A program made the position numbers and the translations under genes. Positions 1,590 to 19,467 of a stretch of 32,000 nt of DNA are shown in pieces; position 1 is the stretch's first letter, and every line of letters starts with the position of its first letter. The stretch is from Alkalicoccus chagannorensis DSM 18086 (lineage in GTDB: Bacteria > Bacillota > Bacilli > Bacillales > Salisediminibacteriaceae). Below the pieces are notes generated by a model. The model ran no database searches. It saw only the letters and a list, made by a program, of their open reading frames with translations, and was not told the DNA's origin. Where the stretch lies: the NCBI RefSeq assembly GCF_000429725.1, contig NZ_AUCK01000008.1, positions 61,122 to 93,121 on the forward strand, given 5' to 3'.

Positions 1590-1840
1590 CGTAACAGCGG
1601 AGATGGGGAGGAGTAAATCGGAAATTCCGCCAGAGAGGGTGCCCGGCTTTATGCCGCTGAGAGGGGATCCCGGAAGGAACGGTTGAAGGTCGCCCCGGAG
1701 CTGCAGCGGTCACATAGAGCCGCTGCCGGAGATGCCCCGTTACGGCACATGAGTGCACAGCCCATCACGCTGTGAAACAAGGTGGTACCGCGGGAGACAA
1801 CCCTCTTCGTCCTTTATACAGGGAGAAGAGGGTTTTTTAT
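1590..1840 (+). promoter_or_regulatory. T-box riboswitch leader (tRNA-Val specifier likely GUC) controlling valS
   Basis: The conserved T-box sequence AAACAAGGTGGTACCGCGGGA lies at about 1775-1795. Stem I motifs are AGAGAG (1632-1637) and GCTGAGA (1656-1662). A GTC codon at 1689-1691 is followed by a purine and then CCCC (1693-1696), which can pair with GGGG (1605-1608), as expected for a specifier loop. A terminator overlaps the T-box 3' side. The downstream gene is valS. Confidence 0.85.
1798..1839 (+). terminator. T-box leader intrinsic terminator
   Basis: AACCCTCTTC ... GAAGAGGGTT stem followed by T6 (1833-1838), about 25 nt before the valS start. Confidence 0.8.
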
Positions 1841-1864
1841 ATGCTGAAAAAGGAGGAAGATCGA

Positions 1865-4507
1865 ATGAGCAGTCAACAAAACGTCACCATGCCATCCAAG
1901 TATGATCCACAGGCGACAGAAGCGAAATGGTACTCATATTGGGTGGAGAACAAATTTTTCGAAGCGGAAGGGGAAGGGGCGAAGACGCCTTACACCGTAG
2001 TGATTCCGCCGCCGAACGTCACCGGCCGGCTGCACCTAGGCCACGCCTGGGATACGACGCTGCAGGACATCCTCATCCGGACGAAGCGCATGCAGGGCTA
2101 TGATGCCCTCTGGCTGCCGGGAATGGACCATGCGGGCATTGCGACGCAGGCTAAAGTGGAAGGCAAGCTGAAGGAGGAGGGAATCTCCCGCCACGACCTC
2201 GGGCGCGAAGCGTTTCTTGAGAAGAGCTGGGAGTGGAAAGAGGAATATGCCTCGTTTATCCGCGATCAGTGGGCGAAGATGGGGCTCTCCCTCGACTATT
2301 CCCGTGAGCGGTTTACGCTCGACAGCGGCCTCTCGGATGCGGTGCGGGAAGTTTTCGTACGCATGTATGAAGAAGGGCTCATCTACCGCGGGGAGTACAT
2401 CATCAACTGGGATCCATCCACCCAGACGGCGCTGAGTGACATTGAAGTCGTCTACGAGGAAGTAAAAGGCGCCTTCTATCACATGCGCTATCCGATGGCG
2501 GACGGCGATGGGGCGATTGAGGTGGCGACGACCCGTCCGGAAACGATGCTCGGCGATACGGCTGTGGCGGTTCATCCGGACGACGACCGCTACCGCCACT
2601 TGATTGGCCGGACCGTCAAGCTTCCGATCGTCGGCAGAGAGATTCCTGTTGTAGCGGATGACTATGTCGACATGGACTTTGGCTCCGGAGCTGTCAAAAT
2701 CACGCCTGCGCATGATCCAAACGACTTCGAAATCGGAACGAGGCACGACCTGGAACGCGTCCTCGTCATGGATGAGTCCGGAACGATGAACAGCAGTGCC
2801 GCCCATTATGAGGGGATGGACCGGTTTGACTGCCGGAAAGCCATCGTCAAGGATCTGCAGGAGGAAGGCATCCTCTTTGATATCGAAGATCATGAGCACA
2901 GCGTCGGGCATTCGGAGCGAAGCGGAGCCGTCGTAGAACCGTACTTGTCGACGCAGTGGTTCGTCAAGATGGGTCCTCTTGCAGAACAGGCCATCGAGCT
3001 GCAGCAGCAGGAGAACAAAGTCCATTTCGTCCCGGACCGTTTTGAGAAAACCTACATGCACTGGATCGAGAATATCCGCGACTGGTGTATCTCCCGTCAG
3101 CTTTGGTGGGGACACCGCATTCCGGCATGGTATCATAAAGAGACCGGAGAGCTTTATGTCGGGCGCGGCGAACCGGAAGATCCCGAGAACTGGGAGCAGG
3201 ATGAAGACGTACTCGATACATGGTTCTCGTCGGCGCTGTGGCCGTTTTCGACCCTCGGCTGGCCGGAGGAAGAAGCGGAAGACTTCCAGCGCTATTACCC
3301 GACGGATGCACTCGTCACGGGATATGACATCATCTATTTCTGGGTAGCCCGCATGATTTTCCAGGGCAGACACTTCACCGAAGAGCGCCCGTTTAAAGAC
3401 GTCCTGATCCACGGTCTTGTTCGGGATGCGGAGGGCCGTAAAATGAGTAAATCGCTCGGCAACGGGGTAGATCCGATGGATGTCATCGACCGGTACGGAG
3501 CTGATGCGCTGCGGTTCTTCCTGAGCACCGGCACCACTCCCGGCAACGATCTCCGCTTCCACTGGGAAAAGGTCGAAGCGAACTGGAACTTCGGCAATAA
3601 GATCTGGAATGCGTCCCGCTTTGCCCTCATGAACATGGACGGCATCACGTATGAAGAGATTGATATCAGCGGACAGAAAACCATCGCCGACGAATGGATC
3701 CTCACACGTCTCGATGACACGATCGAACACGTCACCAAATACATCGACGCGTATGAATTCGGAGAGGTCGGCCGGGCGCTGTACAACTTCATCTGGGACG
3801 ACTTCTGTGACTGGTATATTGAAATGGCAAAGCTGCCGCTCAACGGAGAAGATGACGCAGCCAAGCATACGACGCGCTCGATTCTTGCGTACGTCCTGGA
3901 CCGCACGATGCGGCTGCTCCATCCATTCATGCCTTTCATTACAGAAGAAGTGTGGCAGCACCTGCCGCATGAAGGGGAAACCATCACCCGAGCACCGTGG
4001 CCGAAGCCGAGCGGGCAGGGAAGCCGGACATCCGTCGAAGACATGCAGCTGCTGCAGGAAATCATCCGCTCGGTGCGTAATACGAGAGCAGAGCTGAATG
4101 TACCGATGTCCCGAGAAATCACTCTGTTCCTCAATGCCGGCAGCAGCGCAGTCGAAGCCCAGCTGCTGCGCGGCCAGAGCTATCTGGATAAATTCTGTAA
4201 CCCATCCGAACTCCGGATCGGCACCGGACTGGAAGCGCCGGAAAAATCGATGAGTTCCGTCCTCTCCGGAGTGGAGCTGTACATGCCGCTGGAAGGACTG
4301 CTGGACCTTGATGCGGAAATCAAACGTCTCGAGGATGAAAAGAAACGCCTGGACGGAGAAGTGACCCGTGTACAGAAGAAACTGGCGAACGAAGGATTCA
4401 CCGCCAAGGCTCCCGCCCATGTCGTAGAAGAAGAACGGGAAAAAGAGCGGGATTATACCGAGCAGCGGGAGAAAGTATCAGCGAGATTGGAAGAACTGAA
4501 AAACTAA
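1865..4507 (+). CDS. valS: Valyl-tRNA synthetase
   Basis: Class I aaRS motifs are present: [13 protein letters not shown] (HIGH) and KMSKSLGN (KMSKS), plus a C-terminal coiled coil. The true start is the ATG at 1865 (MSSQQN) with AGGAGG 10 nt upstream. The track start at 1772 (GTG) lies inside the T-box. Confidence 0.97.
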
Positions 4508-4518
4508 GGAGGCCCGCC

Positions 4519-5382
4519 ATGACAACGGTGGCATTTTACCGAGACCGATTTGTCGATATTCAGGAAGACGTCCTGCCGATAGAAGACAGGGGACATCAAT
4601 TCGGCGATGGCATATATGAGGTGATCCGTGTGTACAGCGGCGTCCCGTTTACGCTCGAAGAACATCTGGAGCGCCTCGAACGGAGTGCGGAAGCGATACG
4701 CATGCCGCTTCCGTATTCCATTGACGACATCCGTTCCCGAGCCCTGCAGGCATATGAAGATACGGGGCTGGAGGAAGCAGAAATCTACTTGCAGATCACC
4801 CGTGGTGCATGGACGAGACAGCATCATTTCCCGGAACCTGCGGCGCCGGTGCTGAGCATGGTAGCCGGACCTGCCCGGGAAGTGAGCAGCACCCTGCGGG
4901 CCTCCGGTGTGAAGGTGATCACGACAGAAGACATCCGCTGGAAGCGCTGCTGGATCAAATCCCTGAACCTGCTTCCGAACGTCATGGCGAAGCAGGAGGC
5001 GAAAGACCACGGAGCCCATGAAGCTGTTTTCGTCGATGGTGATGCGGTTACGGAAGGATCGAGCACGAATATTTTCAGAGTGAAAGACGGAGTGCTGGAA
5101 ACGCATCCGGCGACCGAGCGGATTCTTCATGGCATCACCCGCAGGATGGTACTGCAGGCGGCGGAACAGATCGGGCTGCCGTGCAGGGAACTGCCATTCA
5201 CGAAGCAGGAACTGCTGGAATCGGATGAGGCGTTTCTAACCTCGACGACGATGGAAGTGCTCGGCATCGACCAGATTGATGAGACGGCGCTGCCAGCAGC
5301 ACGTCCGATCACGGAGAAGCTGTTTCAGCAGTTTCAACAGATCAAGCACGAAACCCGAACGCAGGAAGGATCAACAGAATGA
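4519..5382 (+). CDS. dat: D-amino-acid (D-alanine) aminotransferase, fold type IV PLP enzyme
   Basis: EDRGHQFGDGIYEVIRVY, RWKRCWIKSLNLLPNVMAKQEA, VTEGSSTNIF and THPATERILHGITR match Bacillus Dat blocks as I remember them. AAGGAGG lies upstream, and the gene starts only 11 nt after the valS stop. Confidence 0.85.
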   Translation: MTTVAFYRDRFVDIQEDVLPIEDRGHQFGDGIYEVIRVYSGVPFTLEEHLERLERSAEAIRMPLPYSIDDIRSRALQAYEDTGLEEAEIYLQITRGAWTRQHHFPEPAAPVLSMVAGPAREVSSTLRASGVKVITTEDIRWKRCWIKSLNLLPNVMAKQEAKDHGAHEAVFVDGDAVTEGSSTNIFRVKDGVLETHPATERILHGITRRMVLQAAEQIGLPCRELPFTKQELLESDEAFLTSTTMEVLGIDQIDETALPAARPITEKLFQQFQQIKHETRTQEGSTE

Positions 5383-5410
5383 GGCCGTGACGAATCCGCC
5401 TGACATGAAC

Positions 5411-5460
5411 AAAAAACGCTTCCGATCATCCAGAATGGATCGTCGGAAGCGTTTCTTCTG
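5411..5460. terminator. Bidirectional intrinsic terminator after dat
   Basis: An A6 tract is followed by ACGCTTCCGATCATCC / GGATCGTCGGAAGCGT arms (10 bp + 2-nt bubble + 4 bp) and then TTTCTTCTG. Confidence 0.7.
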
Positions 5461-5822: not shown

Positions 5823-6659
5823 CTAGGAGGAGAGGATGGTCTCCATTTCCCTGCGCACATAGGCCATCACAACAGCCGCAATGTTGATATCACTGCTGTC
5901 GTAGAGACTTCTGCATCCGACGGTATCCTCCATTTCATTGAACAGCAGCGTACCGTCCTCTGCCAGAAGAAAGTCGATACCGGCAAAATCGATCGGCAGC
6001 ATGGAGGTGACCGCCGTCACTTCTTCACGTTCTTTCCGGCTCAATGAATACAGGCGCGACGACGCACCTCCGGAAATATTCGCCTTGAAATTCGTAGCGG
6101 ACTCCCGAAGCACCGCCGCCTGAATCTCACCGCCGACAATATAGACGCGGACATCCCGTCCGCGCTGGCCGCCGACCGGCTGCAGAAGTACGTTCTCCTG
6201 CAGAGTGGAGTAGGCCAGCTGGTGCGCATGAGCGATCCACTCGACACCGGTGCCTCCGCGACCCATAGGATCTTTCGCAATAAACGGATAAGGAGGGTGG
6301 TTGTCCGGAACGGCCTGTCGATGCACCGCCCTGGATGGAAGCATCGGCAGGCCGAGCCGGCTGACACAGGCATGGCTGAGCCGTTTGTCATTCGCTATTC
6401 GGCTGAAACGGGCCCGGTTGAACACGCGGATGCCCTGCAGTTCTGCTGCTTCATTCAGCCAAGGCGTGGAGGTCCGCACCATGAGAAAATCCGGATAAAA
6501 CGTTCCCGGGCAGTGCAGACCCGAGACATCCAGAGAAAGGTCCTCGTACCGGACCACTGTCAGGCGGATCCCCTCCGACGCGGCTGCCTCCTGAAGAAGG
6601 TCGATAAAGGCTTGATTTCGTTGTTCGTCCTCTTTGTAATAAATAAGCCAGCCTCTCAT
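5823..6659 (-). CDS. RimK-family ATP-grasp ligase, paralog B (divergent metal-site motif)
   Basis: FIAKDPMGRGGTGVEWI (Lys plus Gly-rich loop), NFKANISGGASS (RimK-type F-K/R-x-N-x3-GG) and FAGIDFLL..LLFNEMED. The ATG overlaps the upstream stop in an ATGA (6656-6659). Confidence 0.8.
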   Translation of the reverse strand: MRGWLIYYKEDEQRNQAFIDLLQEAAASEGIRLTVVRYEDLSLDVSGLHCPGTFYPDFLMVRTSTPWLNEAAELQGIRVFNRARFSRIANDKRLSHACVSRLGLPMLPSRAVHRQAVPDNHPPYPFIAKDPMGRGGTGVEWIAHAHQLAYSTLQENVLLQPVGGQRGRDVRVYIVGGEIQAAVLRESATNFKANISGGASSRLYSLSRKEREEVTAVTSMLPIDFAGIDFLLAEDGTLLFNEMEDTVGCRSLYDSSDINIAAVVMAYVRREMETILSS

Positions 6660-7537
6660 TGCCGGATCGTCCTCCTTATCATGTAGTCGATCATGGCATC
6701 CTCCACGCGGATGCCGGTCGTCTCGTATGTACTCTTTATATGCGGATTCGCATTCACTTCGCAGACGAGTGGGACTCGGCCTGCAAACAGATCCACTCCG
6801 GCAAAATCAGCGCCGACCGCTGCCGCAGCGGCAATGGCCGTGTTTTTCTCCTCGGGTGTCGGTTCGTAAGGGACAGCCTTTCCGCCGGCAGTAATGTTTG
6901 CCCGGAAATCGGTGGATGAGGTACGCTTCATAGAGGCAGAAACCTGACCGCCGACGACGTTGAGGCGAAGGTCCGTACCAAGGCTGTCCGACACGGCTTC
7001 CTGGTACAGGTGGGGCACTTCCTGCAGATCTGCAGCTTTGAGCCGCAGTTCTTCAGAGGAGGCAATCCAGTACACCTGTTTTCCGAATGAACCATAGGCT
7101 TCTTTCACGATCATCGGAAAACCAAGGATGCGCTCCACTTCCTGTAAATAAGCATCATCCGTCCTGCCGACGCCTGCATATGCCATCGGAGCAAGAATGG
7201 TCTTCGGCTGGGGGATGCCGTGACGTGCAAACGCCTGATGCATTCTCCGTTTATTGTCACATAACGCGATGGCGGCCGCACTGTTGAACACAGGAATACC
7301 GAGCTGTTCGACCGCCTCGAGCAGCTCAATGTCTTTATCAAACGAGCAGAGGAAGTCAGGATGATGATCCAGCCCGACAACAGAACGGCTGCATCCGGGC
7401 GCTGCAGCGAGAGCATCGTTCGGCACCGCCGTCATATGTACCTTTTTCCGCCGGGCGGCTTCCTGGAGCAGCGCCACGTTGTCCATGAATTTCGGCGTCT
7501 GCAGGCCGCCATTATACAGCACGATTGCCTGAAGCAT
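6656..7537 (-). CDS. RimK-family ATP-grasp ligase, paralog A
   Basis: FPMIVKEAYGSFGKQVYWI, MKRTSSTDFRANITAGGKA and FAGVDLF..LVCEVNANP (D/E/N Mg site). I prefer the ATG at 7537 (MLQAIVLYNGG, parallel to the paralog B N-terminus) with AAAAGGGGGG 7 nt upstream. The track start at 7594 is an upstream extension. Confidence 0.8.
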   Translation of the reverse strand: MLQAIVLYNGGLQTPKFMDNVALLQEAARRKKVHMTAVPNDALAAAPGCSRSVVGLDHHPDFLCSFDKDIELLEAVEQLGIPVFNSAAAIALCDNKRRMHQAFARHGIPQPKTILAPMAYAGVGRTDDAYLQEVERILGFPMIVKEAYGSFGKQVYWIASSEELRLKAADLQEVPHLYQEAVSDSLGTDLRLNVVGGQVSASMKRTSSTDFRANITAGGKAVPYEPTPEEKNTAIAAAAAVGADFAGVDLFAGRVPLVCEVNANPHIKSTYETTGIRVEDAMIDYMIRRTIRQ

Positions 7538-7617
7538 CGGATGTCCCCCCTTTTCCATAAAGCATCTTCTGTATCTTGTCATGAACACGGACAAAAATCA
7601 AATGAGGAGGAACCTTT

Positions 7618-8814
7618 ATGAAGGAGTTTAAAGAGCGGCTGAATGCCGGGATCCGGTATGATCTGAACCGTATGACGAGGGTGCTGGAGCTGCTGGGGCA
7701 CCCGGAAAAAAACAGCAGCATCATTCATATCGCAGGGACGAACGGGAAAGGATCGACGGCAGCCATGTGCGAGGCGCTGCTGCTCGACGCAGACATGGAC
7801 GTGTTCCTGTTCCAAAGCCCTTCGCCAGGACCGAGATCCCATCACTACCGGTCGGGGGGCGCTTATGCGTCTGAGCAAGCATGGAGCGCGTGGCTTACGA
7901 GCGTGATGCCGGCTGTCAGACAGACCGAAGCAGAGATGGATGAGCAGATGACGCCGTTTGAACTGCTGACGGCCGCCGCCTTTGCAGGGGCTGCTGAGAC
8001 GAAGGCAGAGGTGCTGATTCTGGAAGCCGGCATGGGCGGACGGCTCGATGCCACCAATGCAGCCGCTGCATCCGCGGTATCGGTGATCACGTCGGTAGGG
8101 ATGGACCATCAGGCGTATCTCGGAGACACGCGGGAAGCCATTGCCCGGGAAAAAGCCGGTATTTTTAAACCTGGCGTTCCTGCGGTCAGCACAGCAGATG
8201 CAGAAGCGAGAAGCTGGCTGCAGGAAGAAGCGGAGGCAGCAGGTGCTGTCTGGGTGGATCTGCCGAACGTGGCGGATACGTGCAAAGAAGACCATCTTCT
8301 GTATCGAGATGAAGTGTGGCCGCTGCCGGTGAAAGGCCGGCATCAGGCGTCGAATGCACTGGCTGCCGTGATCGCCAGCGAAGTACTGAGCAGCCGGATT
8401 CGTCCAGAGGCACTCCGGCTTGCGGTGATGCCCGCCCGGGGGGAGTGGCTTGAGCCGGATCTGCTCGTCGATTCCGCTCATAACACGGAGGCAGTGGAAG
8501 CCTTGATTGACAGCCTCCCGGAAGGTCAGGACACCGTGTTTCTTCTCGCGGCGATGAAAGATAAACCGGCTGCTGCCATGCTGGAACGAATGCATACGAA
8601 AGGAACCGCTGCAGCTGTCGTCCCTGCAGGTCCGAGGTTCATGCAGGCAGCCGACTGGTACGCGGTAGACAGCAGCATGACGATGGTGGAAGATCCGGTT
8701 TCCTGGGTGTCGGCTCAGAAGGGGAAAACCGTCGTCGTCACCGGATCGCACGCGTTCACCTCCACATTTAGAGAAGAATGGAAAAACCGCGGCATGACAA
8801 AAGCGGGCTCGTAA
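7618..8814 (+). CDS. folC: Folylpolyglutamate synthase / dihydrofolate synthase
   Basis: P-loop HIAGTNGKGST, GIFKPGVPAV (carbamyl-Lys region), LVDSAHN, VVVTGSH. GAGGAGG lies upstream. The omega-loop region is atypical (see findings). Confidence 0.85.
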   Translation: MKEFKERLNAGIRYDLNRMTRVLELLGHPEKNSSIIHIAGTNGKGSTAAMCEALLLDADMDVFLFQSPSPGPRSHHYRSGGAYASEQAWSAWLTSVMPAVRQTEAEMDEQMTPFELLTAAAFAGAAETKAEVLILEAGMGGRLDATNAAAASAVSVITSVGMDHQAYLGDTREAIAREKAGIFKPGVPAVSTADAEARSWLQEEAEAAGAVWVDLPNVADTCKEDHLLYRDEVWPLPVKGRHQASNALAAVIASEVLSSRIRPEALRLAVMPARGEWLEPDLLVDSAHNTEAVEALIDSLPEGQDTVFLLAAMKDKPAAAMLERMHTKGTAAAVVPAGPRFMQAADWYAVDSSMTMVEDPVSWVSAQKGKTVVVTGSHAFTSTFREEWKNRGMTKAGS

Positions 8815-9527: not shown

Positions 9528-11342
9528 ATGACGAGAATTCAATGGTTTGCTGCTTCGTTTCTTGTACTGGCGGGAAGCGTAACCTTTATGCTTGTATTTG
9601 CCTATACAGCACAGCTTACATACGAGGTCTCCTTTCAGGGAGAGCGCTTTGCAGAAGATTCGGAGATTGCCGGCATAGACGTGTCAGACATGACGAGAGA
9701 TGAAGCAGTCGATGCAGTCCGAGAGAATGTGGAAGGCTGGCAGGAGGAGACGCACCTTCATCTAACCTGGTTTGATGAGGAAATCCCGGTACCACGTGAG
9801 TCGATTCAATTTCTTATCGAACCTACCGTGGACCGCCGCCTGGATGACCCGGATGCTTCGGATGAAGGAGTCATCACCGCGGTCGATCAAGGAGCTGTCC
9901 GGCAGTCAGCTGAAAGTTTTTCCTTCCGCGAAGACATGCGGACGGCCGTCGATATCGATGACCTGACCGATGATATTGAAAGGGAGACTGCCTCCTTACC
10001 CGATGACGACCTTCAGTGGATGATGCATGGTTACCTGAACGCCTCGGCGCAGCCGGAAGAAGTCGTCATTGCTGAAGCATCCCGGTCCAACGTCGTGACA
10101 CCGGAACTGCAGGAAGCACTCGACGGCGTCACGTCGGAAACTATCGAAGGCGGCACCAGCTTCTCCGTCATGGAACAGCTCAGCACCCCATCGGAGGACT
10201 GGGTGGATGAAGAACCGCTGGCGGCGCTCGGCTCTGCCGTCTTTGAAGTGGTCGCATCCAGCAACTTCAACATCGAAGAGCGACATCACCGATATGCGCT
10301 GCTGGACAGCGTACCGATGGGCTTTGATGCCCACCTGGAAGAAGATATCCGTGATTTTCAATTTACGAACCCGAACGACTACGACTATGAACTGGAGTTT
10401 AACCTGACCGGGACGAACCTGGAAGTAACGCTGGTCGGCTATGAATTCCCTTATGATATTGCCGTAGACGTCTTTGAAACAGATAATATCGGCACACGCA
10501 CGAAAATTACGTATTCTCAGACGCAGGAAACGGAAGATTCTACGACCGAACTCGATAATGGAGAAAATGGACTCCGGGTGGAAACGATCCGCACCCTTTC
10601 CTATCAGGATGCGGAACTGGATGACGAGCCGATCGGCCAGCAGGTGCTTGCCGAAGACTACTACGCGCCCGTTCATGCCCTCGAGCGCCGTTCCATTGAT
10701 CAGCGTCAGGAAGAAGAGGAAGACGAAGACGAGGACGATTTCCCTTGGTTTGACGAAGACTTCAACGGCTTTAACGACGAGGAAGAGCGCGACGAATTTG
10801 AAGACTGGCTGGAAAACGGGGAAGGCTCCGATGCTTTTGAAGACTGGCTTGATGAAGGAGCGCCGGGAGACTTCGATGATTGGCTCGAAGAAAACGGAGA
10901 CAACGGCGGCTTTGACTTCGACAACGGCAACGGCTTCGATTTTGACAATGGCAACGGCGCAGACAACGGATTCGATTTCGATACCGGCAACGGCGCGGAC
11001 AACGGATTCGATTTCGATACCGGCAATGGCGCAGACAATGGATTCGATTTTGATACTGGCAACGGCGCAGATAACGGCCTCGATTTTGATAACGGAAACG
11101 GGGACGACAATGGCTTCGATTTCGGCAATGGAAACGGGAACGGATCGAGTCCCGGAAATGGAAACGGCACCGATAACGGATTTGGTCCGGGGAACGGAAA
11201 TGGAAACGGCAACGGATTCGGTCCCGGCACTGGCAATGGCAATGGAAACGGCGCCGGCCCCGGTAATGGAAATGGCAACGGAACATTCCCAGGTGGCGGT
11301 GATCCGGGCGGAAAAGACGGCTCCTCCACTAAAGGGGACTAG
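9528..11342 (+). CDS. Membrane-anchored VanW-like protein with an acidic linker and a GN/DF tandem-repeat C-terminus
   Basis: There is an N-terminal TM helix (FAASFLVLAGSVTFMLVFAY). IAGIDVSDMTRDEAVDAVRENVEGW resembles the PG_binding_4-type domain that precedes VanW domains. Residues about 205-305 (GTSFSVMEQL..SAVFEVVASSNFNIEERHHR..VPMGFDAHL..DFQFTNPNDYDYELEF..LEVTLVG) parallel the VanW core as I remember it from YoaR-like proteins. The C-terminal 200 aa are low complexity. RBS is TAGGAGGA. Confidence 0.55.
   Translation: MTRIQWFAASFLVLAGSVTFMLVFAYTAQLTYEVSFQGERFAEDSEIAGIDVSDMTRDEAVDAVRENVEGWQEETHLHLTWFDEEIPVPRESIQFLIEPTVDRRLDDPDASDEGVITAVDQGAVRQSAESFSFREDMRTAVDIDDLTDDIERETASLPDDDLQWMMHGYLNASAQPEEVVIAEASRSNVVTPELQEALDGVTSETIEGGTSFSVMEQLSTPSEDWVDEEPLAALGSAVFEVVASSNFNIEERHHRYALLDSVPMGFDAHLEEDIRDFQFTNPNDYDYELEFNLTGTNLEVTLVGYEFPYDIAVDVFETDNIGTRTKITYSQTQETEDSTTELDNGENGLRVETIRTLSYQDAELDDEPIGQQVLAEDYYAPVHALERRSIDQRQEEEEDEDEDDFPWFDEDFNGFNDEEERDEFEDWLENGEGSDAFEDWLDEGAPGDFDDWLEENGDNGGFDFDNGNGFDFDNGNGADNGFDFDTGNGADNGFDFDTGNGADNGFDFDTGNGADNGLDFDNGNGDDNGFDFGNGNGNGSSPGNGNGTDNGFGPGNGNGNGNGFGPGTGNGNGNGAGPGNGNGNGTFPGGGDPGGKDGSSTKGD
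10794..11285 (+). repeat. In-frame coding tandem repeats: 3x (F/A)(E/D)DWL(E/D)xG units, five 36-bp GNGADNGFDFDT units (10950-11129), then a degenerate GNG hexanucleotide array
   Basis: Direct reading shows ggcaacggcgcagacaacggattcgatttcgatacc repeated head-to-tail at 10950, 10986, 11022, 11058 and 11094, with mostly synonymous differences (aac/aat, gac/gat, ttc/ttt). A ggaaac/ggcaat periodicity follows, up to about 11285. Confidence 0.9.
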
Positions 11343-11363: not shown

Positions 11364-13028
11364 ATGGCAGCACATGATCGTCGCCGTTTAGGTGATATCC
11401 TGGTTGATGCAGGAATGCTTACGAAGGAAGAGGTAGAGAAAACCGTTGCAGAAAAAGGGGATGAAAAGCTCGGAGACGCGCTGAAAAACCGGGGATTGAT
11501 CACGGAAGAAGAGCTGCTGGAACTGCTCGAATTCCAGCTCAGCATCCCGCGGATCAGACTGAATACGTTCCCGGTCGACACCGAAGCGGTCAAGCATGTT
11601 TCGCGCGCTTTTGCTGAACGAAACGACCTCATACCGGTAGAGAAATCCGGAACGACCCTGCGCGTGGCGATGGCCGATCCCATTGATTATTTCGCCCTGG
11701 ATGATATCCGGATGTCTTCTGGTTTTGAAGTAGATCCGGTTATAGCAAGCAAGATGGAGATCCGGGAAGCGGTTGCTGCCTACTATGCCGATTGGGAAGA
11801 GGCAGCGTTCCAAGTATCGGAAGCAGAAACGTCCAGCAGTATGACCCAGATCGGTGACCGGGAAGAAGACGCCCCGGTCATCCGCATGGTCAACCAAATG
11901 CTGATCAAAGGCCTTCAGAAAGAAGCGAGTGACATTCACGTAGATCCGCAGGAAGATAAAGTGCTCTTCCGCTACCGGATTGATGGCGTTCTTCATTCGG
12001 AAAGAGCGATGAGCAGGGAATACCAGAATGCGCTGACAGCGAGAATAAAGATCATGGCTGAATTGAATATCACAGAAACGAGGCTTCCGCAGGATGGGCG
12101 GGTGAAAGTGCATGTCGAGCAGAAGCAGGTGGACCTCCGCATCTCCACGATGCCGACGATCTTCGGCGAGAAGATTGTGATCCGGATTCTTGATAAAGAA
12201 GGAGCGCTGAAAGAAATCGAGGACCTCGGTTTCAACAGCATGAATTTGAAAAAATTCCGGAAGCTGATCGAGCGGCCGTCCGGTATGATACTGATTACAG
12301 GACCGACGGGCTCCGGCAAGACGACGACGCTATATGCCGCCCTGAATCGCCTGAACGGCGAGGAAGTCAATATCATTACTGCGGAGGACCCCGTCGAATA
12401 CCAGATCGAAGGAATTAATCAAGTACAGGTGAAGCCTGAAATCGGGTTGACGTTTGCCCATACACTCCGCACGATTCTCCGGCAGGACCCGGATATTGTT
12501 ATGGTCGGGGAAGTACGTGATTCAGAAACGGCGGAAATCGCGATACGGGCCGCGCTGACAGGTCATCTCGTGTTCAGTACGATTCACACAAACAGCGCGG
12601 TCGCCACCATACCGCGGCTAATTGATATGGGCATCGAGCCGTACCTGGTCACCTCCTCCGTATCCGGTATCATCAGTCAGCGGCTCGTGAGAGAGATCTG
12701 CTCGAACTGCCGCACATCCGATGTACCAACAGAGGCAGTGAAAGAAATATTCGAAGCACGGGGCATGGACGTGGAGGCGGTTTATTATGGAAGCGGCTGT
12801 GAAGCCTGCAATGGCAGTGGCTACCGCGGTCGTCTGGCGGTACATGAAATCATTGCTGTCGATGATCTCGTCCGCAAAATGATTCTCAACAATGCGGAGA
12901 TGTCAGCCATCCGCCGGTATCTCCTGGACCAGGACATGCTGTTTCTCATGGACGACGGTTTTTTCAAGGCAGCACAGGGCAAGACGACCCTGGAAGAGAT
13001 CTACCGGGTGGCGGCAGATGATGCATAA
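11364..13028 (+). CDS. pilB: Type IV pilus assembly (extension) ATPase PilB, GspE family
   Basis: Walker A GPTGSGKTTT, Asp/His boxes, and a tetracysteine cluster CSNC...CEACNGSGYRGR. The N-terminal T2SSE_N/MshEN-like domain begins RLGDILVDAG. SD AGGTGA lies upstream. Confidence 0.93.
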   Translation: MAAHDRRRLGDILVDAGMLTKEEVEKTVAEKGDEKLGDALKNRGLITEEELLELLEFQLSIPRIRLNTFPVDTEAVKHVSRAFAERNDLIPVEKSGTTLRVAMADPIDYFALDDIRMSSGFEVDPVIASKMEIREAVAAYYADWEEAAFQVSEAETSSSMTQIGDREEDAPVIRMVNQMLIKGLQKEASDIHVDPQEDKVLFRYRIDGVLHSERAMSREYQNALTARIKIMAELNITETRLPQDGRVKVHVEQKQVDLRISTMPTIFGEKIVIRILDKEGALKEIEDLGFNSMNLKKFRKLIERPSGMILITGPTGSGKTTTLYAALNRLNGEEVNIITAEDPVEYQIEGINQVQVKPEIGLTFAHTLRTILRQDPDIVMVGEVRDSETAEIAIRAALTGHLVFSTIHTNSAVATIPRLIDMGIEPYLVTSSVSGIISQRLVREICSNCRTSDVPTEAVKEIFEARGMDVEAVYYGSGCEACNGSGYRGRLAVHEIIAVDDLVRKMILNNAEMSAIRRYLLDQDMLFLMDDGFFKAAQGKTTLEEIYRVAADDA

Positions 13029-14097: not shown

Positions 14098-15303
14098 ATG
14101 CCTTTTTATCATTACTATGGAAGAGATGCCTATGGCGTTCCAGTCGAAGGGAAAATGAGAGGCGCGACAGAAAAGGAAGTGCGGGGAAAACTCGAAAAAA
14201 AGGCCGTTCATGCCAAGGAAGTGAAGCAGCTGGAAGGCTGGCTTTATCAGGATGTGCCCGTGCTTCAGCGGCAGAACCCGAAAGAAATGGTCCTCTTCCT
14301 CCGTCAGCTGGCGACGCTGCTGCAGGCAGGGATCACGCTGGTGGAATCCATCAAGCTGCTCGCCGGACAGATGCAGTCGAGGCAGTGGCGGGATACGCTC
14401 GCAGCCGTGGAGGAGGACATCCGGGGCGGCACCGCCTTTTCCGCAGCAGCAGAAAAACACCGGAACCTTTTTCCGCCGCTGATGACGAACATGATCAAAG
14501 CGGGCGAAGCCGGGGGAGATCTGGATGAAGTCATCGAACGGCTCGCTGTTTATTACGAAAAACAGTACCGCCTGCGTCAGAAGGTGTTATCGTCCCTGTC
14601 TTATCCATTGATCCTTGCAGGGGCTTCCATGGCGGTCGTGATCTTTCTTCTCGCTGTTGTCGTTCCGACTTTCGCTGATATGTTCGCCGGATTTCAAGCC
14701 GAGCTTCCGTGGATTACGAGATTCGTTCTCACGCTCGGTAATGTTGTATCGAGCCTCTGGTGGCTGCTGTTTCCGCTCGCCGCCGCTGGCATTGCAGCCG
14801 CCGCTCTGATCCGGAGCAGACGGGAGTACCTATACTGGTGGCACTATGTCCTGCTGCGGACGCCGATCGTCGGCGGTGTGCTGCAGAAAGCGGCGATCGC
14901 CCGCATGAGCCGCACGTGGAGCTCCTTGTTCGCAAGTTCCGTGCCGGTACTGCAGGCCGTTTCCATCGTAGAGCGAGTCGTTGGCAACGAAGTCCTGGCG
15001 ACCGTGATACGAGACTCCCGGAAGTCGCTTGAAAAAGGCGAATCGCTGGCCGACCCGATGAACGGACACTGGATTTTTCCTCCGATGGTTACGCAGATGG
15101 TAACCGTAGGAGAAAAGACAGGGTCGCTGGATCAGATGTTTGATAAGATAGCGGACTTTTATGAAGAGGAAGTGGATCAGGCCACCGACCGCATGAAAAG
15201 CATGATGGAGCCGGTGTTAATCTCCGTTCTGGCTGTCGTCGTCGGGGTCATTGTGGCTTCCGTGGCAGTACCGATGTTTGAAATTTTCGATACGATCGAA
15301 TAA
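14098..15303 (+). CDS. pilC: Type IV pilus platform protein PilC (GspF family)
   Basis: Two GspF repeats (FLRQLATLLQAGITLVESI and WSSLFASSVPVLQAVSIV), polytopic TM helices, and RBS AAAGGAGA. Confidence 0.9.
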   Translation: MPFYHYYGRDAYGVPVEGKMRGATEKEVRGKLEKKAVHAKEVKQLEGWLYQDVPVLQRQNPKEMVLFLRQLATLLQAGITLVESIKLLAGQMQSRQWRDTLAAVEEDIRGGTAFSAAAEKHRNLFPPLMTNMIKAGEAGGDLDEVIERLAVYYEKQYRLRQKVLSSLSYPLILAGASMAVVIFLLAVVVPTFADMFAGFQAELPWITRFVLTLGNVVSSLWWLLFPLAAAGIAAAALIRSRREYLYWWHYVLLRTPIVGGVLQKAAIARMSRTWSSLFASSVPVLQAVSIVERVVGNEVLATVIRDSRKSLEKGESLADPMNGHWIFPPMVTQMVTVGEKTGSLDQMFDKIADFYEEEVDQATDRMKSMMEPVLISVLAVVVGVIVASVAVPMFEIFDTIE

Positions 15304-15408
15304 CGTTTCGCTGATGCTCAGCCGGGGTATAGACTTAATAAGCACACAAATAGTCCTTTCATTCCTTGCCGGACCAGGCTGGTTTTGTATTATTGAGTCT
15401 AAATACCC

Positions 15409-15437
15409 TTACCATTGATTTTGTTTTCACATACAAT
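15409..15437 (+). promoter_or_regulatory. Putative sigma-A promoter for the pilin leader
   Basis: TTACCA (15409-15414), a 17-nt spacer, then TACAAT (15432-15437). This would start transcription about 10 nt before the proposed aptamer P1. Confidence 0.4.
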
Positions 15438-15453
15438 AAGACAAAGTGAATCA

Positions 15454-15526
15454 GAAGAAGCAAAGACACCATCATTGTATGTGGGCACTTGATGATGGGA
15501 GAGCGAGTAGTGCAACCGGCTTCCTC
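15454..15526 (+). promoter_or_regulatory. Candidate c-di-GMP-II riboswitch aptamer
   Basis: GGGCACTTGA (15483-15492) and AGTAGTGCAACCG (15506-15518) are identical to the two conserved blocks I recall from the class II c-di-GMP aptamer, with the same 13-nt spacing. They are flanked by complementary helices GAAGAAGC/GCTTCCTC, CCATCAT/ATGATGG and GCACT/AGTGC, and an AAA junction follows P1. This is from memory and has not been verified with a covariance model. Confidence 0.6.
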
Positions 15527-15558
15527 TAAAGGACTTAGAGTGCATGCCGGTTTTTTTT
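15515..15558 (+). terminator. Leader terminator (riboswitch expression platform) upstream of the pilin RBS
   Basis: Outer stem ACCGGC/GCCGGT and inner stem CTCTAA/TTAGAG (5-nt loop), followed by T8 (15551-15558). It lies 40 nt before the pilin ATG. Its 5' half overlaps the aptamer 3' end. Confidence 0.75.
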
Positions 15559-15597
15559 ATCGGCTGACTAAATATTAACGAGAAGGAGACGATCATC

Positions 15598-16065
15598 ATG
15601 AGAAAGATGTTCCAGTATTTAAAGAACCAGCGCGGGTTAACGTTGATCGAACTGCTTGCGGTCATCATCATCCTCGGTATCATCGCTGCGATTGCCGTTC
15701 CGGCGATCGGCGGTCTGATTGACAACTCACGAGAGGATGCCCACATTGCCAATGCAGAGACAGCTGTGGATGCAGCCAGGCTGGCATCGATTAGTGAGAA
15801 CGAAGAGACAGGGCAATTTGATGTAGTTGTTGATGATGATAATGATGGTGATATTAATCTTGTAGATGCAGGATACATTGAGAGTATACCTGAAGACCCT
15901 GAAAATAATGGTTACGAGGAATTCTATGTAACTATCAACGACGAAGGTGACTACACTGTTACAATGGGTAACAATGGAGATAACAATATTTTCAATGAAG
16001 TTTCTATTGAAACCATCCGCGAGGATGGGCGAGGTGCTATCGGCGCCGACGAAAGCGATGACTAG
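15598..16065 (+). CDS. pilA: Type IV (major) pilin, class III signal peptide
   Basis: MRKMFQYLKNQRG|LTLIELLAVIIILGIIAAIAVPA shows Gly at -1, Glu at +5 and a hydrophobic alpha1-N helix. The C-terminal domain is acidic and lacks Cys. RBS is GAAGGAG. Confidence 0.9.
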   Translation: MRKMFQYLKNQRGLTLIELLAVIIILGIIAAIAVPAIGGLIDNSREDAHIANAETAVDAARLASISENEETGQFDVVVDDDNDGDINLVDAGYIESIPEDPENNGYEEFYVTINDEGDYTVTMGNNGDNNIFNEVSIETIREDGRGAIGADESDD

Positions 16066-16080
16066 GAGTAACTTCTAATT

Positions 16081-16125
16081 AACACAGTGTTCCGGCTCCT
16101 GACCCGGGACACTGTGTTTTTTTAT
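16081..16125 (+). terminator. Strong intrinsic terminator after the pilin gene
   Basis: ACACAGTGTTCC ... GGGACACTGTGT stem followed by T7. Confidence 0.85.
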
Positions 16126-16219: not shown

Positions 16220-16987
16220 ATGGAGTGGTTCTGGTACATATACATAGGCACGGCCGGACTCGCGCTCGGGTCCTTTTATAATGTGATGGGCCTGCGCTGG
16301 ACGCAGGGCGAATCGGTCGTGCATCCCCGCTCGGCTTGCCCCTCCTGCGGACATACGCTCCGAACCGGGGAGCTGATTCCGGTGTTTTCCTACCTCGTGC
16401 AGCGGGGACGCTGCCGCAGCTGCGGCAGCCGGATCTCGCCGATGTACCCGGGCATCGAGCTGCTGACCGGCCTGCTGTTTCTGGCTGCGGCCGTCTCCAC
16501 CGGCCTCACGTGGGAACTTCCGGTCGCCCTGCTGCTGATATCGATGCTGATGGTCTCGATCGTGACGGACCTTACCGAAACGTTGATTTTAGACAGGGTG
16601 CTTCTTCTTTTCGGCGTACCGCTGCTGATCCTCCGCCTGACTGCAGCCTCACTCGAGCCCTGGTGGGACGCCCTGCTCGGGGCCGGCGCGGGATTTACGC
16701 TGCTGCTGCTGATTGCCATTCTATCGAAAGGCGGCATGGGCGGAGGGGATATCAAGCTGTATGCCGTACTCGGTGCAGCGCTCGGCTTCGTTCCGATGCT
16801 GCTGTCGCTGTTTCTCGCTGCGCTCTTCGGCCTCGCGGGAACCCTCCTGCTGCACGCGAAGCAGAGGATACAACGGAAGATGGAAGTGCCGTTCGGACCG
16901 TACATCGCCGCCGGCGCGGTCACCGCTTATTTTTTCGGCAGTGATCTGCTGCAGTGGTATACTGGACTTCTGACGATGGGACAATAG
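16220..16987 (+). CDS. pilD: Prepilin peptidase / N-methyltransferase (A24 family)
   Basis: CPSCGHTL...CRSCGSRIS zinc-type Cys pairs, GGGDIKLYAVLGAALG (catalytic Asp), and polytopic membrane topology. It occupies the positional equivalent of B. subtilis comC. Confidence 0.92.
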   Translation: MEWFWYIYIGTAGLALGSFYNVMGLRWTQGESVVHPRSACPSCGHTLRTGELIPVFSYLVQRGRCRSCGSRISPMYPGIELLTGLLFLAAAVSTGLTWELPVALLLISMLMVSIVTDLTETLILDRVLLLFGVPLLILRLTAASLEPWWDALLGAGAGFTLLLLIAILSKGGMGGGDIKLYAVLGAALGFVPMLLSLFLAALFGLAGTLLLHAKQRIQRKMEVPFGPYIAAGAVTAYFFGSDLLQWYTGLLTMGQ

Positions 16988-17015: not shown

Positions 17016-17996
17016 ATGAGAAACCTATTTTCAAAAAGCCGGCATGCGATCATCATTACCGATCATGTGCTTCGTTATGCTGAGGTGAGAAACCAGTCGC
17101 TGGATCACATCAACACGGCTGCGGAACGCTACATACCCGAAGGTGTCATGGTCCATGGACAGATCAAGGAAGTAGATACCCTGCTGTCGCTCTTGCAGGA
17201 CTGCGTGGAAGAATGGGGCCTGAAAGGGAAAGAAGTGATGTTCACGCTTCCTGATACCCAGGTCCTCGTCCGACGGCACACCATCCCGATGGATGTCGAG
17301 GAGGATCATATTCTCGGACATCTCTATATGCAGCTCGGCGAAACGCTGCACCTGCCGATTGAGCAGCCCGTGTTCGACTGGTACGAGATAGAACGGGATG
17401 AAGAAAAGCGGGATGTGCTGCTGTTTGCGGCTCCGGAACCGACCGTGACGACGATTGCACGACTGATGCGGGAAGTGAAGATGAAGCCGCGCGCGGCGGA
17501 TCTATCGGCGCTCAGCCTGTATCGGTTTTATGATACGTGGCTCGGAGAAGAAACGCCGAGTCATGTCATGCAGATGCAGGTGTTTCCGGACGCGTTTCAC
17601 GTATCGATTTTTCATGACGGCCTTCCGCTGATTGTCCGCACGATGAACCTGCAGACATCGATGGAAGACTGGGAAGTCAATCCCCATGACGATGACCCGA
17701 TCCAGTGGAACGGACCGCCGGAGAAGGTGTTCAGTTCCTGGAAAGATGCGGTAGGCGAACTGAACAAGCTCCTCCATTTTTATCAATTTAACTATCAGCA
17801 TGGAGAAGCCGCTGTGTCCCGTATCCGGATCAGCGGGGACCATCCGTATCTCGAACGAATCATTGAAGATCTGCGTGCGTCGGTAGATCTCCCTGTCGAC
17901 TATCTTTATGAGTCGGAATGGAAGACGAGTCAGGGCCACGGGCTGGAGACGAAATACTATCCTGCCGTCGGGCTCGCGCTGAAGAATGAGGTGTAG
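17016..17996 (+). CDS. pilM: Type IV pilus assembly protein PilM (actin-like ATPase fold)
   Basis: Its size, its position before pilN/pilO, and an N-terminal pattern (..PEGVMVHGQIKEVDTLLSLLQDCVEEWGLKGKEVMFTLPDTQVLVRRHTIP) typical of PilM. Confidence 0.78.
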   Translation: MRNLFSKSRHAIIITDHVLRYAEVRNQSLDHINTAAERYIPEGVMVHGQIKEVDTLLSLLQDCVEEWGLKGKEVMFTLPDTQVLVRRHTIPMDVEEDHILGHLYMQLGETLHLPIEQPVFDWYEIERDEEKRDVLLFAAPEPTVTTIARLMREVKMKPRAADLSALSLYRFYDTWLGEETPSHVMQMQVFPDAFHVSIFHDGLPLIVRTMNLQTSMEDWEVNPHDDDPIQWNGPPEKVFSSWKDAVGELNKLLHFYQFNYQHGEAAVSRIRISGDHPYLERIIEDLRASVDLPVDYLYESEWKTSQGHGLETKYYPAVGLALKNEV

Positions 17997-17998
17997 TC

Positions 17999-18616
17999 AT
18001 GCGCGTAGAAATTAATTTACTGCCGCAGAAACGTAAACGATCCGGATCGCTGCCGGTCATTCTCGCTGCGCTGCTGCTCGCAGCCGTGATGATTATCTTC
18101 ACGATGTTTTCCCTGTCCCAGTCGATCGAAAATGACCGGACCGCATCGGAAGAAGAGCTGCAGGAACTGCAGATGGAGACAACGGAACTTGAAAATCAAA
18201 TCACAGAACTGCAGAATCCGGAACAGGAAGAGCTGCAGGCGAGAATGGATGAGCTGGATGATAAAATCGTTCCTGTCTCCGTTGTTCTGGATGAAGTCGT
18301 GGCACGAATGCCCGAAGAGTCTGTGATGACGCTGTTCGACTATGTGTTTCCGGATGAAATCATCATGGAAGCGATTATCCTGAGCGTCCCGGACATCGCA
18401 CGCTATCAGCATGCGCTGGAGGATTCACCAATGATTCAGCGGGCGGAAGTGGACACGGTGCTCGGAGAAGAAATCCTGGAAGAGCTGGAGGAAGATATTT
18501 TCTGGTATGAAGACTACCTTCCCCAGTATTTTACAACGTTCGAAATCACGCTTCATCCGGATGCCGTGAGAGCGTTTGAAGAAGAACCAGAGGAAGACGA
18601 GGTGGAGCTGCCATGA
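17999..18616 (+). CDS. pilN: Type IV pilus assembly protein PilN
   Basis: MRVEINLLPQKRK (the INLLP signature), one TM helix, then a coiled coil. The C-terminus is acidic. Confidence 0.75.
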   Translation: MRVEINLLPQKRKRSGSLPVILAALLLAAVMIIFTMFSLSQSIENDRTASEEELQELQMETTELENQITELQNPEQEELQARMDELDDKIVPVSVVLDEVVARMPEESVMTLFDYVFPDEIIMEAIILSVPDIARYQHALEDSPMIQRAEVDTVLGEEILEELEEDIFWYEDYLPQYFTTFEITLHPDAVRAFEEEPEEDEVELP

Positions 18617-19467
18617 TGAACAAGCGCAGAGACAAGATTCTCGTCATTCTGAGTGCCGTGCTCGTAGCCGTCGGCCTCCTCTTTCTGTATTTTCAGATGA
18701 TCCAGCCCGAGCTCGACGAAAGGGAAGCGACGGAAGAGGAGCTGGAATCAGAAACCCAGTATGCAGCGGAGCTGGAAGCTCAGCTGGAAGAAGAAATGGA
18801 AGAAGCGGCGGAGCGGAGCGACCTTACGACAGAACACCAGCGCCGGCTGCCTGTCGTCCGTCTCACCGATCAGTTTCTGCTGGATTTGAGCATGGCGGAA
18901 GAATTATCCGAAGTGAGGATCATGGATATCGATATGACCTATGATCAGCCGGTCTATACGTACGAGACGACGGAAGTATCCGACTCTTCCGATCCGCCTG
19001 CAGCGCGGACGGATATCGACGACGTCCGTGAAGAAGAACCCGAAGAAGATGAAGAGCTCGTCGGCACCGATGACGACGTCGATGCGGAAGATACAGAAAT
19101 CGAGTCGGATCTCGAAGACCGGGAAGAAGAGACAGCCGATGCAGATGAAGCTGAACGCGGAGCGGTTCAAGGAGACGAAATCGACGGTGTGCGCCGGCAG
19201 ACGGCGCTCATCGAACTGAAGGTCAACACGTATGACCACCTGAGCGGCTTTCTCGAAGAAGTCGATGCGCTCGTGCGCGACGTGAACATTGATTCCATTC
19301 TGTTTCTCGGTCAGGATTCGGACCGGATCTTTGACGGCGAGTCCGACATCTTTTTTGAAGTAGAAGTATCTTCTTATTACTATCCGGAGCTGGAAGAGTT
19401 GGAACCGGAAGCTCCGATCGTTGACTATCCGGAAGACGAAGACCGGGATTCCCCATTCGGTGAGTAA
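18613..19467 (+). CDS. pilO: Type IV pilus assembly protein PilO-like, with an acidic insert of about 70 aa
   Basis: An N-terminal TM helix (ILVILSAVLVAVGLLFLYF) is followed by a coiled coil. ATGA overlap with pilN (18613-18616). The call rests on position and architecture. Confidence 0.6.
   Translation: MMNKRRDKILVILSAVLVAVGLLFLYFQMIQPELDEREATEEELESETQYAAELEAQLEEEMEEAAERSDLTTEHQRRLPVVRLTDQFLLDLSMAEELSEVRIMDIDMTYDQPVYTYETTEVSDSSDPPAARTDIDDVREEEPEEDEELVGTDDDVDAEDTEIESDLEDREEETADADEAERGAVQGDEIDGVRRQTALIELKVNTYDHLSGFLEEVDALVRDVNIDSILFLGQDSDRIFDGESDIFFEVEVSSYYYPELEELEPEAPIVDYPEDEDRDSPFGE

Follow-up and report, generated by a model that had tools for sequence, protein, structure and literature searches.

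The DNA analysed here is a 32,000-nucleotide stretch of Alkalicoccus chagannorensis DSM 18086 (contig NZ_AUCK01000008.1, positions 61,122 to 93,121 of the forward strand), called the window below, and all coordinates refer to it unless another locus is named. It carries a cluster of type IV pilus (pil) genes in which the pilC stop codon (15303) and the ATG of the major prepilin gene (15598) are separated by a spacer of 294 nucleotides (nt). We propose, with a probability of roughly 85%, that this spacer holds a class II cyclic di-GMP (c-di-GMP) aptamer at the 5' end of a separate pilin transcript, and that c-di-GMP would block a terminator and thereby switch pilin on. The separate transcript would begin at a promoter inside the pilB-pilT-pilC-pilA-pilD-pilMNO cluster. 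When no ligand is bound, the aptamer 3' end ACCGGCUUCCUCUAAA (15515-30) would pair with 15534-15551, giving an intrinsic terminator with U8 after it, and transcription would halt some 40 nt short of the start codon of the pilin gene. When c-di-GMP is bound, 15515-30 would be taken up by the pseudoknot/triplex core and by P1, the terminator could not form and the pilin mRNA would be completed; high c-di-GMP would in this way turn pilin production on.

The whole window was scanned against Rfam 15 at gathering thresholds, and two matches were obtained, a T-box leader (described with the neighbouring genes below) and the c-di-GMP-II family, RF01786. The latter match lies at 15447-15530 on the plus strand with 62.5 bits against a gathering threshold of 53.5 (E-value 7.6e-12), and it spans model positions 1-84 of 84, that is, it is not truncated. 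An initial annotation made from the letters alone had named the element a class II c-di-GMP aptamer and had suggested a covariance-model search with RF01786; the significant match above the curated threshold agrees with that identification, as do the conserved blocks and the compensatory helix changes described below. Among the 34 upper-case consensus positions of the model, 33 are kept in the window, the sole change being U18 to A at a position that also varies among the aptamers of relatives. The segments that the initial annotation had listed are all present exactly, namely GAAGAAGC (15454-61), CCAUCAU (15469-75), GGGCACUUG (15483-91), AUGAUGG (15492-98), AGUAGUGCAACCG (15506-18) and GCUUCCUC (15519-26), and its readings of CCAUCAU/AUGAUGG as a perfect helix of 7 base pairs (bp) and of GCACU/AGUGC as complementary were confirmed in the sequence.

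The structural marks of the family are also found. The P3 loop, which carries UGUAUnUGGGCACUU in the family, reads UGUAUGUGGGCACUUG in the window and is closed by the 7-bp perfect stem. The 3' block AGUnGUGCAACCGnC is present at 15506-15520 together with the pseudoknot GCACU/AGUGC. The P2/kink-turn region (GA...GC...UGA facing GAG) retains its GA dinucleotides; its UGA is AGA in the window, a variant common to the related loci L023, L026 and L027 (the loci of our comparison are cited by number), and A12 is bulged in the RF01786 register. The secondary structure of the aptamer, taken without pseudoknot or ligand, was evaluated at -7.4 kcal/mol, to which the pseudoknot duplex would add roughly -6.6 kcal/mol. 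The assignment of 15447-15530 to the class II c-di-GMP aptamer family is therefore supported, and ligand binding, in identity as well as in affinity, is predicted from it. It could be argued that the fold senses a different dinucleotide or a related ligand, as RF01786 shares its Rfam clan (CL00127) with related variant motifs and variant ligand specificities exist for the unrelated class I (GEMM) fold. However, the canonical RF01786 gives the best match of the clan, with no change in the conserved core, and we regard such a change of ligand as highly improbable.

One pairing of the initial annotation was not retained. It had taken GAAGAAGC/GCUUCCUC as an 8-bp P1, which is not the register of the family, where P1 is formed by GAAG (15454-57) and CUUC (15520-23). 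The 8-bp helix gives the better isolated fold (-11.5 against -7.4 kcal/mol) but it was rejected because it would break the conserved P2 pairs, which 15-16 of the 16 orthologues keep unchanged.

Fifteen further loci have the same aptamer between pilC and the pilin gene, with scores of 54-79 bits, giving in all 16 aptamers from 8 genera at one orthologous site. The relatives that carry it are three more Alkalicoccus, Alteribacter aurantiacus, 'Bacillus' shivajii, Salisediminibacterium selenitireducens, Anaerobacillus arseniciselenatis, Salibacterium salarium, Halalkalibacter nanhaiisediminis and six Terribacillus. A PilC search of the genome collection returned only relatives of at most 45% identity, with no Alkalicoccus among them, and the closer loci were reached through a protein search and exact-protein look-ups. 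For these closer relatives, 9 of 10 loci contain the aptamer in the pilC-pilin spacer (54-72 bits). In all six Terribacillus loci an RF01786 match of 73-79 bits lies some 90 nt past pilC, and the pilin gene comes next. The distribution is patchy. No RF01786 aptamer was found at gathering thresholds in seven Halobacillus/Thalassobacillus loci (L001-L006, L016), nor was one found in this group at permissive E-values (three loci) or with a purpose-built covariance model, and the pilC-pilin spacer of Paenalkalicoccus suaedae (L021 4207-4400) is unrelated and without a c-di-GMP-II aptamer. Paenalkalicoccus suaedae, Halobacillus and Thalassobacillus show the same pil gene order around their aptamer-free spacers. 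Close relatives have gained or lost the riboswitch repeatedly. A match from the purpose-built model in a metagenome-assembled genome of Clostridia (L014; 19 bits, 52 nt) was treated as noise and left out. In one Thalassobacillus locus without the riboswitch (L005 5826-5967), a sub-threshold match to the Staphylococcus aureus small RNA tsr24 was seen downstream of pilC (33.9 bits, gathering threshold 50, E-value 6.6e-4).

The 16 orthologous aptamers were used for a covariation analysis with two alignments. A1 is a plain MAFFT alignment with the Rfam structure and the pseudoknot. A bulge in P3 displaces its Salisediminibacterium row by one column, and therefore a covariance model was built and the set was realigned to give A3, which is fitted to the model and leans towards the structure. 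Because the set consists of related sequences, six of them near-identical Terribacillus, the counts from shuffles given here are not probabilities. In A1, 77% of the cells pair, where shuffles give 64% and slid partners 33-45%; its covariation score of 0.40 compares with 0.16 for shuffles. In A3, 79.6% of the cells pair and the covariation score is 0.59, where shuffles reach 0.21 and the slid controls no more than 0.18. P3 contributes an unambiguous pattern: two-sided change occurs at 8 of its 8 pairs, which swap CG, GC, AU and UA between genera, while 92-94% of the cells remain paired (A1 and A3; 16 sequences). For P1, 68% of the cells are paired in A3 and the inner pairs covary at columns 9/79 and 11/77, columns 9/79 being AU in 6, UA in 6 and GC, GU and UG in 1 each. 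P2 is nearly constant in A3 (columns 15/60 G-C in 16/16, columns 16/59 C-G in 15/16). The five pairs of the pseudoknot are invariant in 16/16 and therefore uninformative for covariation in this set; GCGC/GCGC variants of the pseudoknot occur elsewhere in the c-di-GMP-II family, for example in B. pseudofirmus (Table S3, PMC4933901). The alignment of orthologous leaders, which the initial annotation had also suggested, accordingly shows the two blocks conserved and the helices changed in a compensatory manner.

We then consider how the aptamer is joined to the terminator. In the window, ACCGGC (15515-20) pairs with GCCGGU (15546-51) and the T8 run lies at 15551-58. The hairpin AACCGGC-UUC-CUCUAA-AGGAC-UUAGAG-UGCAU-GCCGGU was evaluated at -13.8 to -15.3 kcal/mol; a simple terminator scan missed it because of its internal loops. 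The 5' half of the terminator shares 16 nt (15515-15530) with the aptamer, comprising the conserved ACCGG, the P1 3' strand and the last model positions. The unconstrained minimum free energy fold of the leader includes the 15515-15558 terminator, and since the aptamer alone reaches only -7.4 kcal/mol, OFF (termination) would be the default state. A tertiary structure stabilised by the ligand would be needed to withhold the 5' arm of the terminator, which gives the ON logic. The arrangement of the Cdi2_4/pilA1 type of switch, a terminator whose 5' arm overlaps the aptamer 3' strand before a pilin gene, is therefore present in the window.

The same design was found in all nine relatives outside Terribacillus, where, as in the window, the final 16-17 nt of the aptamer also belong to a terminator. 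These nine terminators have energies of -9.8 to -29.9 kcal/mol, begin at ACCGRC or GGCC inside the aptamer 3' end and have tails with 5-8 U in 10 nt, while their stem sequences are otherwise unrelated. A design that is kept without conservation of its sequence is the best computational support for the predicted ON mechanism, and it is at this level of anatomy, in the window and nine relatives, that the ON logic of the initial annotation is supported. The element is probably an ON switch in which c-di-GMP would block the terminator, the direction and size of the regulation being read from this geometry. In some relatives a leader of 170-290 nt lies between the riboswitch terminator and the pilin start (L025 about 4640-4760; L022 4440-4670; L023 4430-4570). 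The Anaerobacillus leader (L025) contains a second terminator-like hairpin, AAAGGCGGATGATTTC...GAAATCGTCCGCCTTTTT, and control elements may be in tandem there.

The six Terribacillus orthologues (L007-L012, about 5358-5420) keep the aptamer without a U tract. They contain two mutually exclusive conserved hairpins, CCGGCCA...UGGCCGG and GUUUCC...GGAAAC, about 20 nt before the Shine-Dalgarno sequence, and the first of them uses the aptamer 3' end. Sequestration of the Shine-Dalgarno sequence was considered for these loci and rejected, as the 'free' and 'bound' leader folds gave no consistent difference in accessibility.

The promoter and the transcription start of the separate pilin transcript are candidates. 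The site TTACCA-17-TACAAT named in the initial annotation is found at 15409-15437 and matches the consensus at 9 of 12 positions in a consensus scan. Most relatives, namely the six Terribacillus, L020, L022, L023, L026 and L027, have a box resembling a -10 element (TATAAT or TATACT) 8-20 nt ahead of the aptamer.

Several points weigh against the proposed ON switch. The RF01786 score of the window is among the lowest of the aptamer set, and P1 has only four contiguous pairs in the family register (GAAG/CUUC) with its outer positions mostly mismatched. In Clostridioides difficile, 5 of 16 predicted c-di-GMP riboswitches were reported to be non-functional (PMC6366702), and therefore a model match does not prove function. 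From these points the aptamer might be a decaying relic that does not bind, with 15515-15558 serving as a constitutive attenuator or a leaky terminator and the promoter alone setting pilin expression. We consider this unlikely. The conserved core nucleotides are intact but one, and the aptamer is retained in four Alkalicoccus species with compensatory substitutions in P3, which indicates selection on the structure. A design that competes with a terminator requires a short P1.

The terminator design is also not universal, as the Terribacillus loci lack the U tract, and the promoter scan gave 3 sites against 2.0 +/- 1.6 in shuffles, so that the promoter-like site, a weak consensus match, is not significant when taken alone. 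The c-di-GMP turnover enzymes of the organism have to be assumed, since they are outside the reach of the 32-kb window. The Terribacillus platform, with two exclusive hairpins and no U tract, indicates that other outputs exist in the lineage, and together with the status of the promoter it leaves a very small probability that a functional aptamer has another output in the window too: it could work as an OFF switch, act on translation or on the stability of the RNA, or govern read-in from pilC instead of a pilin-specific promoter. The hairpin in the window is, however, a canonical terminator with U8 that shares 16 nt with the aptamer 3' end, which is the geometry of an ON switch, and the Shine-Dalgarno sequence lies 25 nt past the U tract and is uninvolved in the alternative leader folds. 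The ON switch for the pilin transcript remains the preferred reading. Table 1 collects the features.

Table 1. Features of the pilin leader and of the surrounding pil genes in the window.
Feature	Position	Strand	Basis or remark
Candidate sigma-A promoter of the pilin transcript, TTACCA-17 nt-TACAAT	15409..15437	+	inferred
c-di-GMP-II aptamer, full length	15447..15530	+	RF01786; same position in 15 related loci
P1 5' strand GAAG, pairs with CUUC 15520-15523	15454..15457	+	model alignment
P2 5' strand GC, pairs with GC 15503-15504, adjoins the kink-turn GA dinucleotides	15460..15461	+	
P3 hairpin CCAUCAU 15469-75/AUGAUGG 15492-98, loop with conserved UGUAUGUGGGCACUUG	15469..15498	+	7 perfect pairs
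Pseudoknot strand GCACU, pairs with AGUGC 15509-15513	15485..15489	+	5 pairs
Conserved 3' block AGUAGUGCAACCGG	15506..15519	+	alignment columns invariant or nearly so
Intrinsic terminator, ACCGGC/GCCGGU outer stem, CUCUAA/UUAGAG inner stem, then U8	15515..15558	+	
Shine-Dalgarno AAGGAG of the pilin gene	15583..15588	+	9 nt before ATG 15598
pilB, assembly ATPase, N-terminal MshEN	11364..13028	+	T2SSE E-value 2.6e-135; MshEN E-value 2.2e-19
pilT-type retraction ATPase, 341 amino acids	13045..14070	+	T2SSE; gene call (L017 1948-2973)
pilC, platform protein	14098..15303	+	T2SSF E-value 2.9e-64; 100% identical to Alkalicoccus chagannorensis protein
Major type IV prepilin, 155 amino acids, leader MRKMFQYLKNQRG / LTLIELLAV	15598..16065	+	N_methyl PF07963 E-value 4.4e-8
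Strong terminator after the pilin gene, 15-pair stem then T run	16081..16118	+	
pilD, prepilin peptidase	16220..16987	+	
pilM	17016..17996	+	
pilN-like	17999..18616	+	
pilO-like	18613..19467	+	

The gene order of the window, as annotated with Pfam, is NUDIX, [T-box] valS, class IV aminotransferase, two RimK-like ATP-grasp genes on the minus strand, a Mur-ligase-like gene in the folC position, a small open reading frame (ORF), a VanW-domain protein, pilB, pilT, pilC, [riboswitch], prepilin, pilD, pilM, pilN-like, pilO-like, maf, radC and mreB. The pil cluster thus sits where comC is found in the valS-folC-comC-maf-radC-mreB region of Bacillus, in agreement with the comC-position locus named by the initial annotation. 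The strong terminator that follows the pilin gene makes pilin look like a regulated unit of its own within the cluster. The C-terminal globular part of the pilin is extremely acidic, with D/E runs such as DVVVDDDNDGD and the end GADESDD, an acidity typical of proteins exposed to high salt. The G+C content of the window is 50-57%. The T-box leader (RF00230, 1591-1817; 99.1 bits, gathering threshold 93) lies directly upstream of valS (ORF 1772-4507) and is ordinary. The two RimK-like genes are adjacent on the minus strand (5823-6659 and 6656-7594), and the Mur-ligase/FolC-like gene (7618-8814, plus strand) adjoins the pair. The VanW-domain protein (9528-11342) is large and stands immediately upstream of pilB in most related pil loci; VanW is listed by Pfam, sometimes weakly, in 9 of the 11 loci L017-L027, the exceptions being L021 and L022. 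Two antisense ORFs were set aside. The one at 7579-8751 (390 amino acids) has no family match and is probably spurious, and the one at 15399-15878 (159 amino acids; TauE with 16 bits, below the cutoff) was treated as spurious because it is without family support and overlaps the conserved pilin gene.

A further c-di-GMP input may act on the same pilus at the protein level. The N-terminus of PilB (window 11364-11530) contains the MshEN motifs RLGDILVDAGMLTKEEVEKTVAEK-GDE-KLGDALKNRGLITEEELLELLEFQ, i.e. two RLG/KLG...Q motifs separated, by our own reading of the sequence, by a linker of 3 residues. MshEN is a known c-di-GMP receptor type on pilus ATPases, with a usual linker of 5 residues. Since the linker is 3 rather than 5 residues long, c-di-GMP binding by this domain is a plausible prediction, and the domain fits c-di-GMP control of the pilus. 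A wider reading can be offered tentatively, and we hold it to be rather doubtful as a whole: the riboswitch would split the pil cluster of these Bacillaceae and place the major pilin alone under c-di-GMP control at the RNA level, the MshEN domain of PilB would provide a second c-di-GMP input, to assembly and through protein, and Terribacillus would have a novel platform in which the two exclusive hairpins have taken the place of the terminator and work by neither intrinsic termination nor obvious Shine-Dalgarno sequestration.

If the ON switch is correct, class II ON control of type IV pili, which has been studied experimentally only in C. difficile, would be extended to aerobic halo-alkaliphilic Bacillaceae. 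The arrangement is conserved in at least eight genera at the same site of the pil cluster, and it predicts that piliation is coupled to high c-di-GMP in these organisms. The ten terminator platforms on one aptamer are also natural variants for riboswitch engineering. The knowledge of the family itself is unchanged, and standard Rfam-based annotation would find the riboswitch of the window. The RNA family, its members in Bacillaceae and the paradigm of a pilin ON switch are all known already. In the literature searched, no paper on the association of c-di-GMP-II with a pilin gene in Bacillales was found, so the description at the level of the locus (site in the cluster, terminator platform and distribution) may be new, although it is routine annotation.

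When compared with the known members of the family, the closest is an orthologue that was already tabulated. Table S3 of Tang et al. 2016 (PMC4933901), which is derived from Rfam, gives 'Bacillus selenitireducens MLS10' CP001791.1 1643284-1643367 as c-di-GMP-II, and also lists the family in B. cellulosilyticus, B. coahuilensis, B. halodurans, B. pseudofirmus and Caldalkalibacillus. The suggestion of the initial annotation that such an element was undescribed in Bacillaceae was thus too strong. The L024 aptamer of our set (locus 1638871-1646079, aptamer at 4414-4497) is the MLS10 entry, with the same coordinates and sequence. It is a true orthologue from Salisediminibacterium selenitireducens MLS10, located in the pilC-pilin spacer with the same terminator overlap, whereas the table gives coordinates and sequence only and says nothing of gene context, expression platform or function. 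The Alkalicoccus aptamer differs from it in the P1 and P3 helices.

In the Clostridium acetobutylicum class II aptamer the elements follow one another as they do in the window, and the conserved blocks, that of the loop and that on the 3' side, are the same, a comparison made through the covariance model only; the helix sequences differ, as does position 73, which is G rather than A. We take this aptamer to be the RNA of the crystal structure (Smith et al. 2011, PDB 3Q3Z). In the published Rfam-derived table, whose text comes from noisy optical character recognition, its entry reads ...TTGGGCAC.TGAG...GAGTTAGTAGTGCAACCGACC and has the 3' block AGTAGTGCAACCGA, the same as in the window. Bc2 of Bacillus thuringiensis, upstream of the collagen adhesin gene cap (PMC4933901), is likewise a Bacillaceae c-di-GMP ON switch that controls a surface adhesion factor via transcription read-through, but it belongs to class I (GEMM), with an unrelated aptamer fold and another target gene.

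The nearest functional parallel is Cdi2_4 of C. difficile, located upstream of pilA1, where transcription terminates in the absence of c-di-GMP and is read through in its presence (Bordeleau et al. 2015, as reported in the review PMC6366702); all four functional class II switches of C. difficile are ON switches (PMC6366702). Cdi2_4 is alike in aptamer family, in the type of gene regulated (a major type IV pilin) and in the ON logic, which is predicted for the window. The host of the window switch is by contrast a member of Bacillales, an aerobic haloalkaliphile, and this switch is predicted from its sequence. The placement also differs: in C. difficile the switch stands at the head of pilA1 and read-through continues into the pilB operon, according to the same review, whereas the riboswitch of the window stands in the middle of its cluster, between pilC and pilA, with a strong terminator after pilA.
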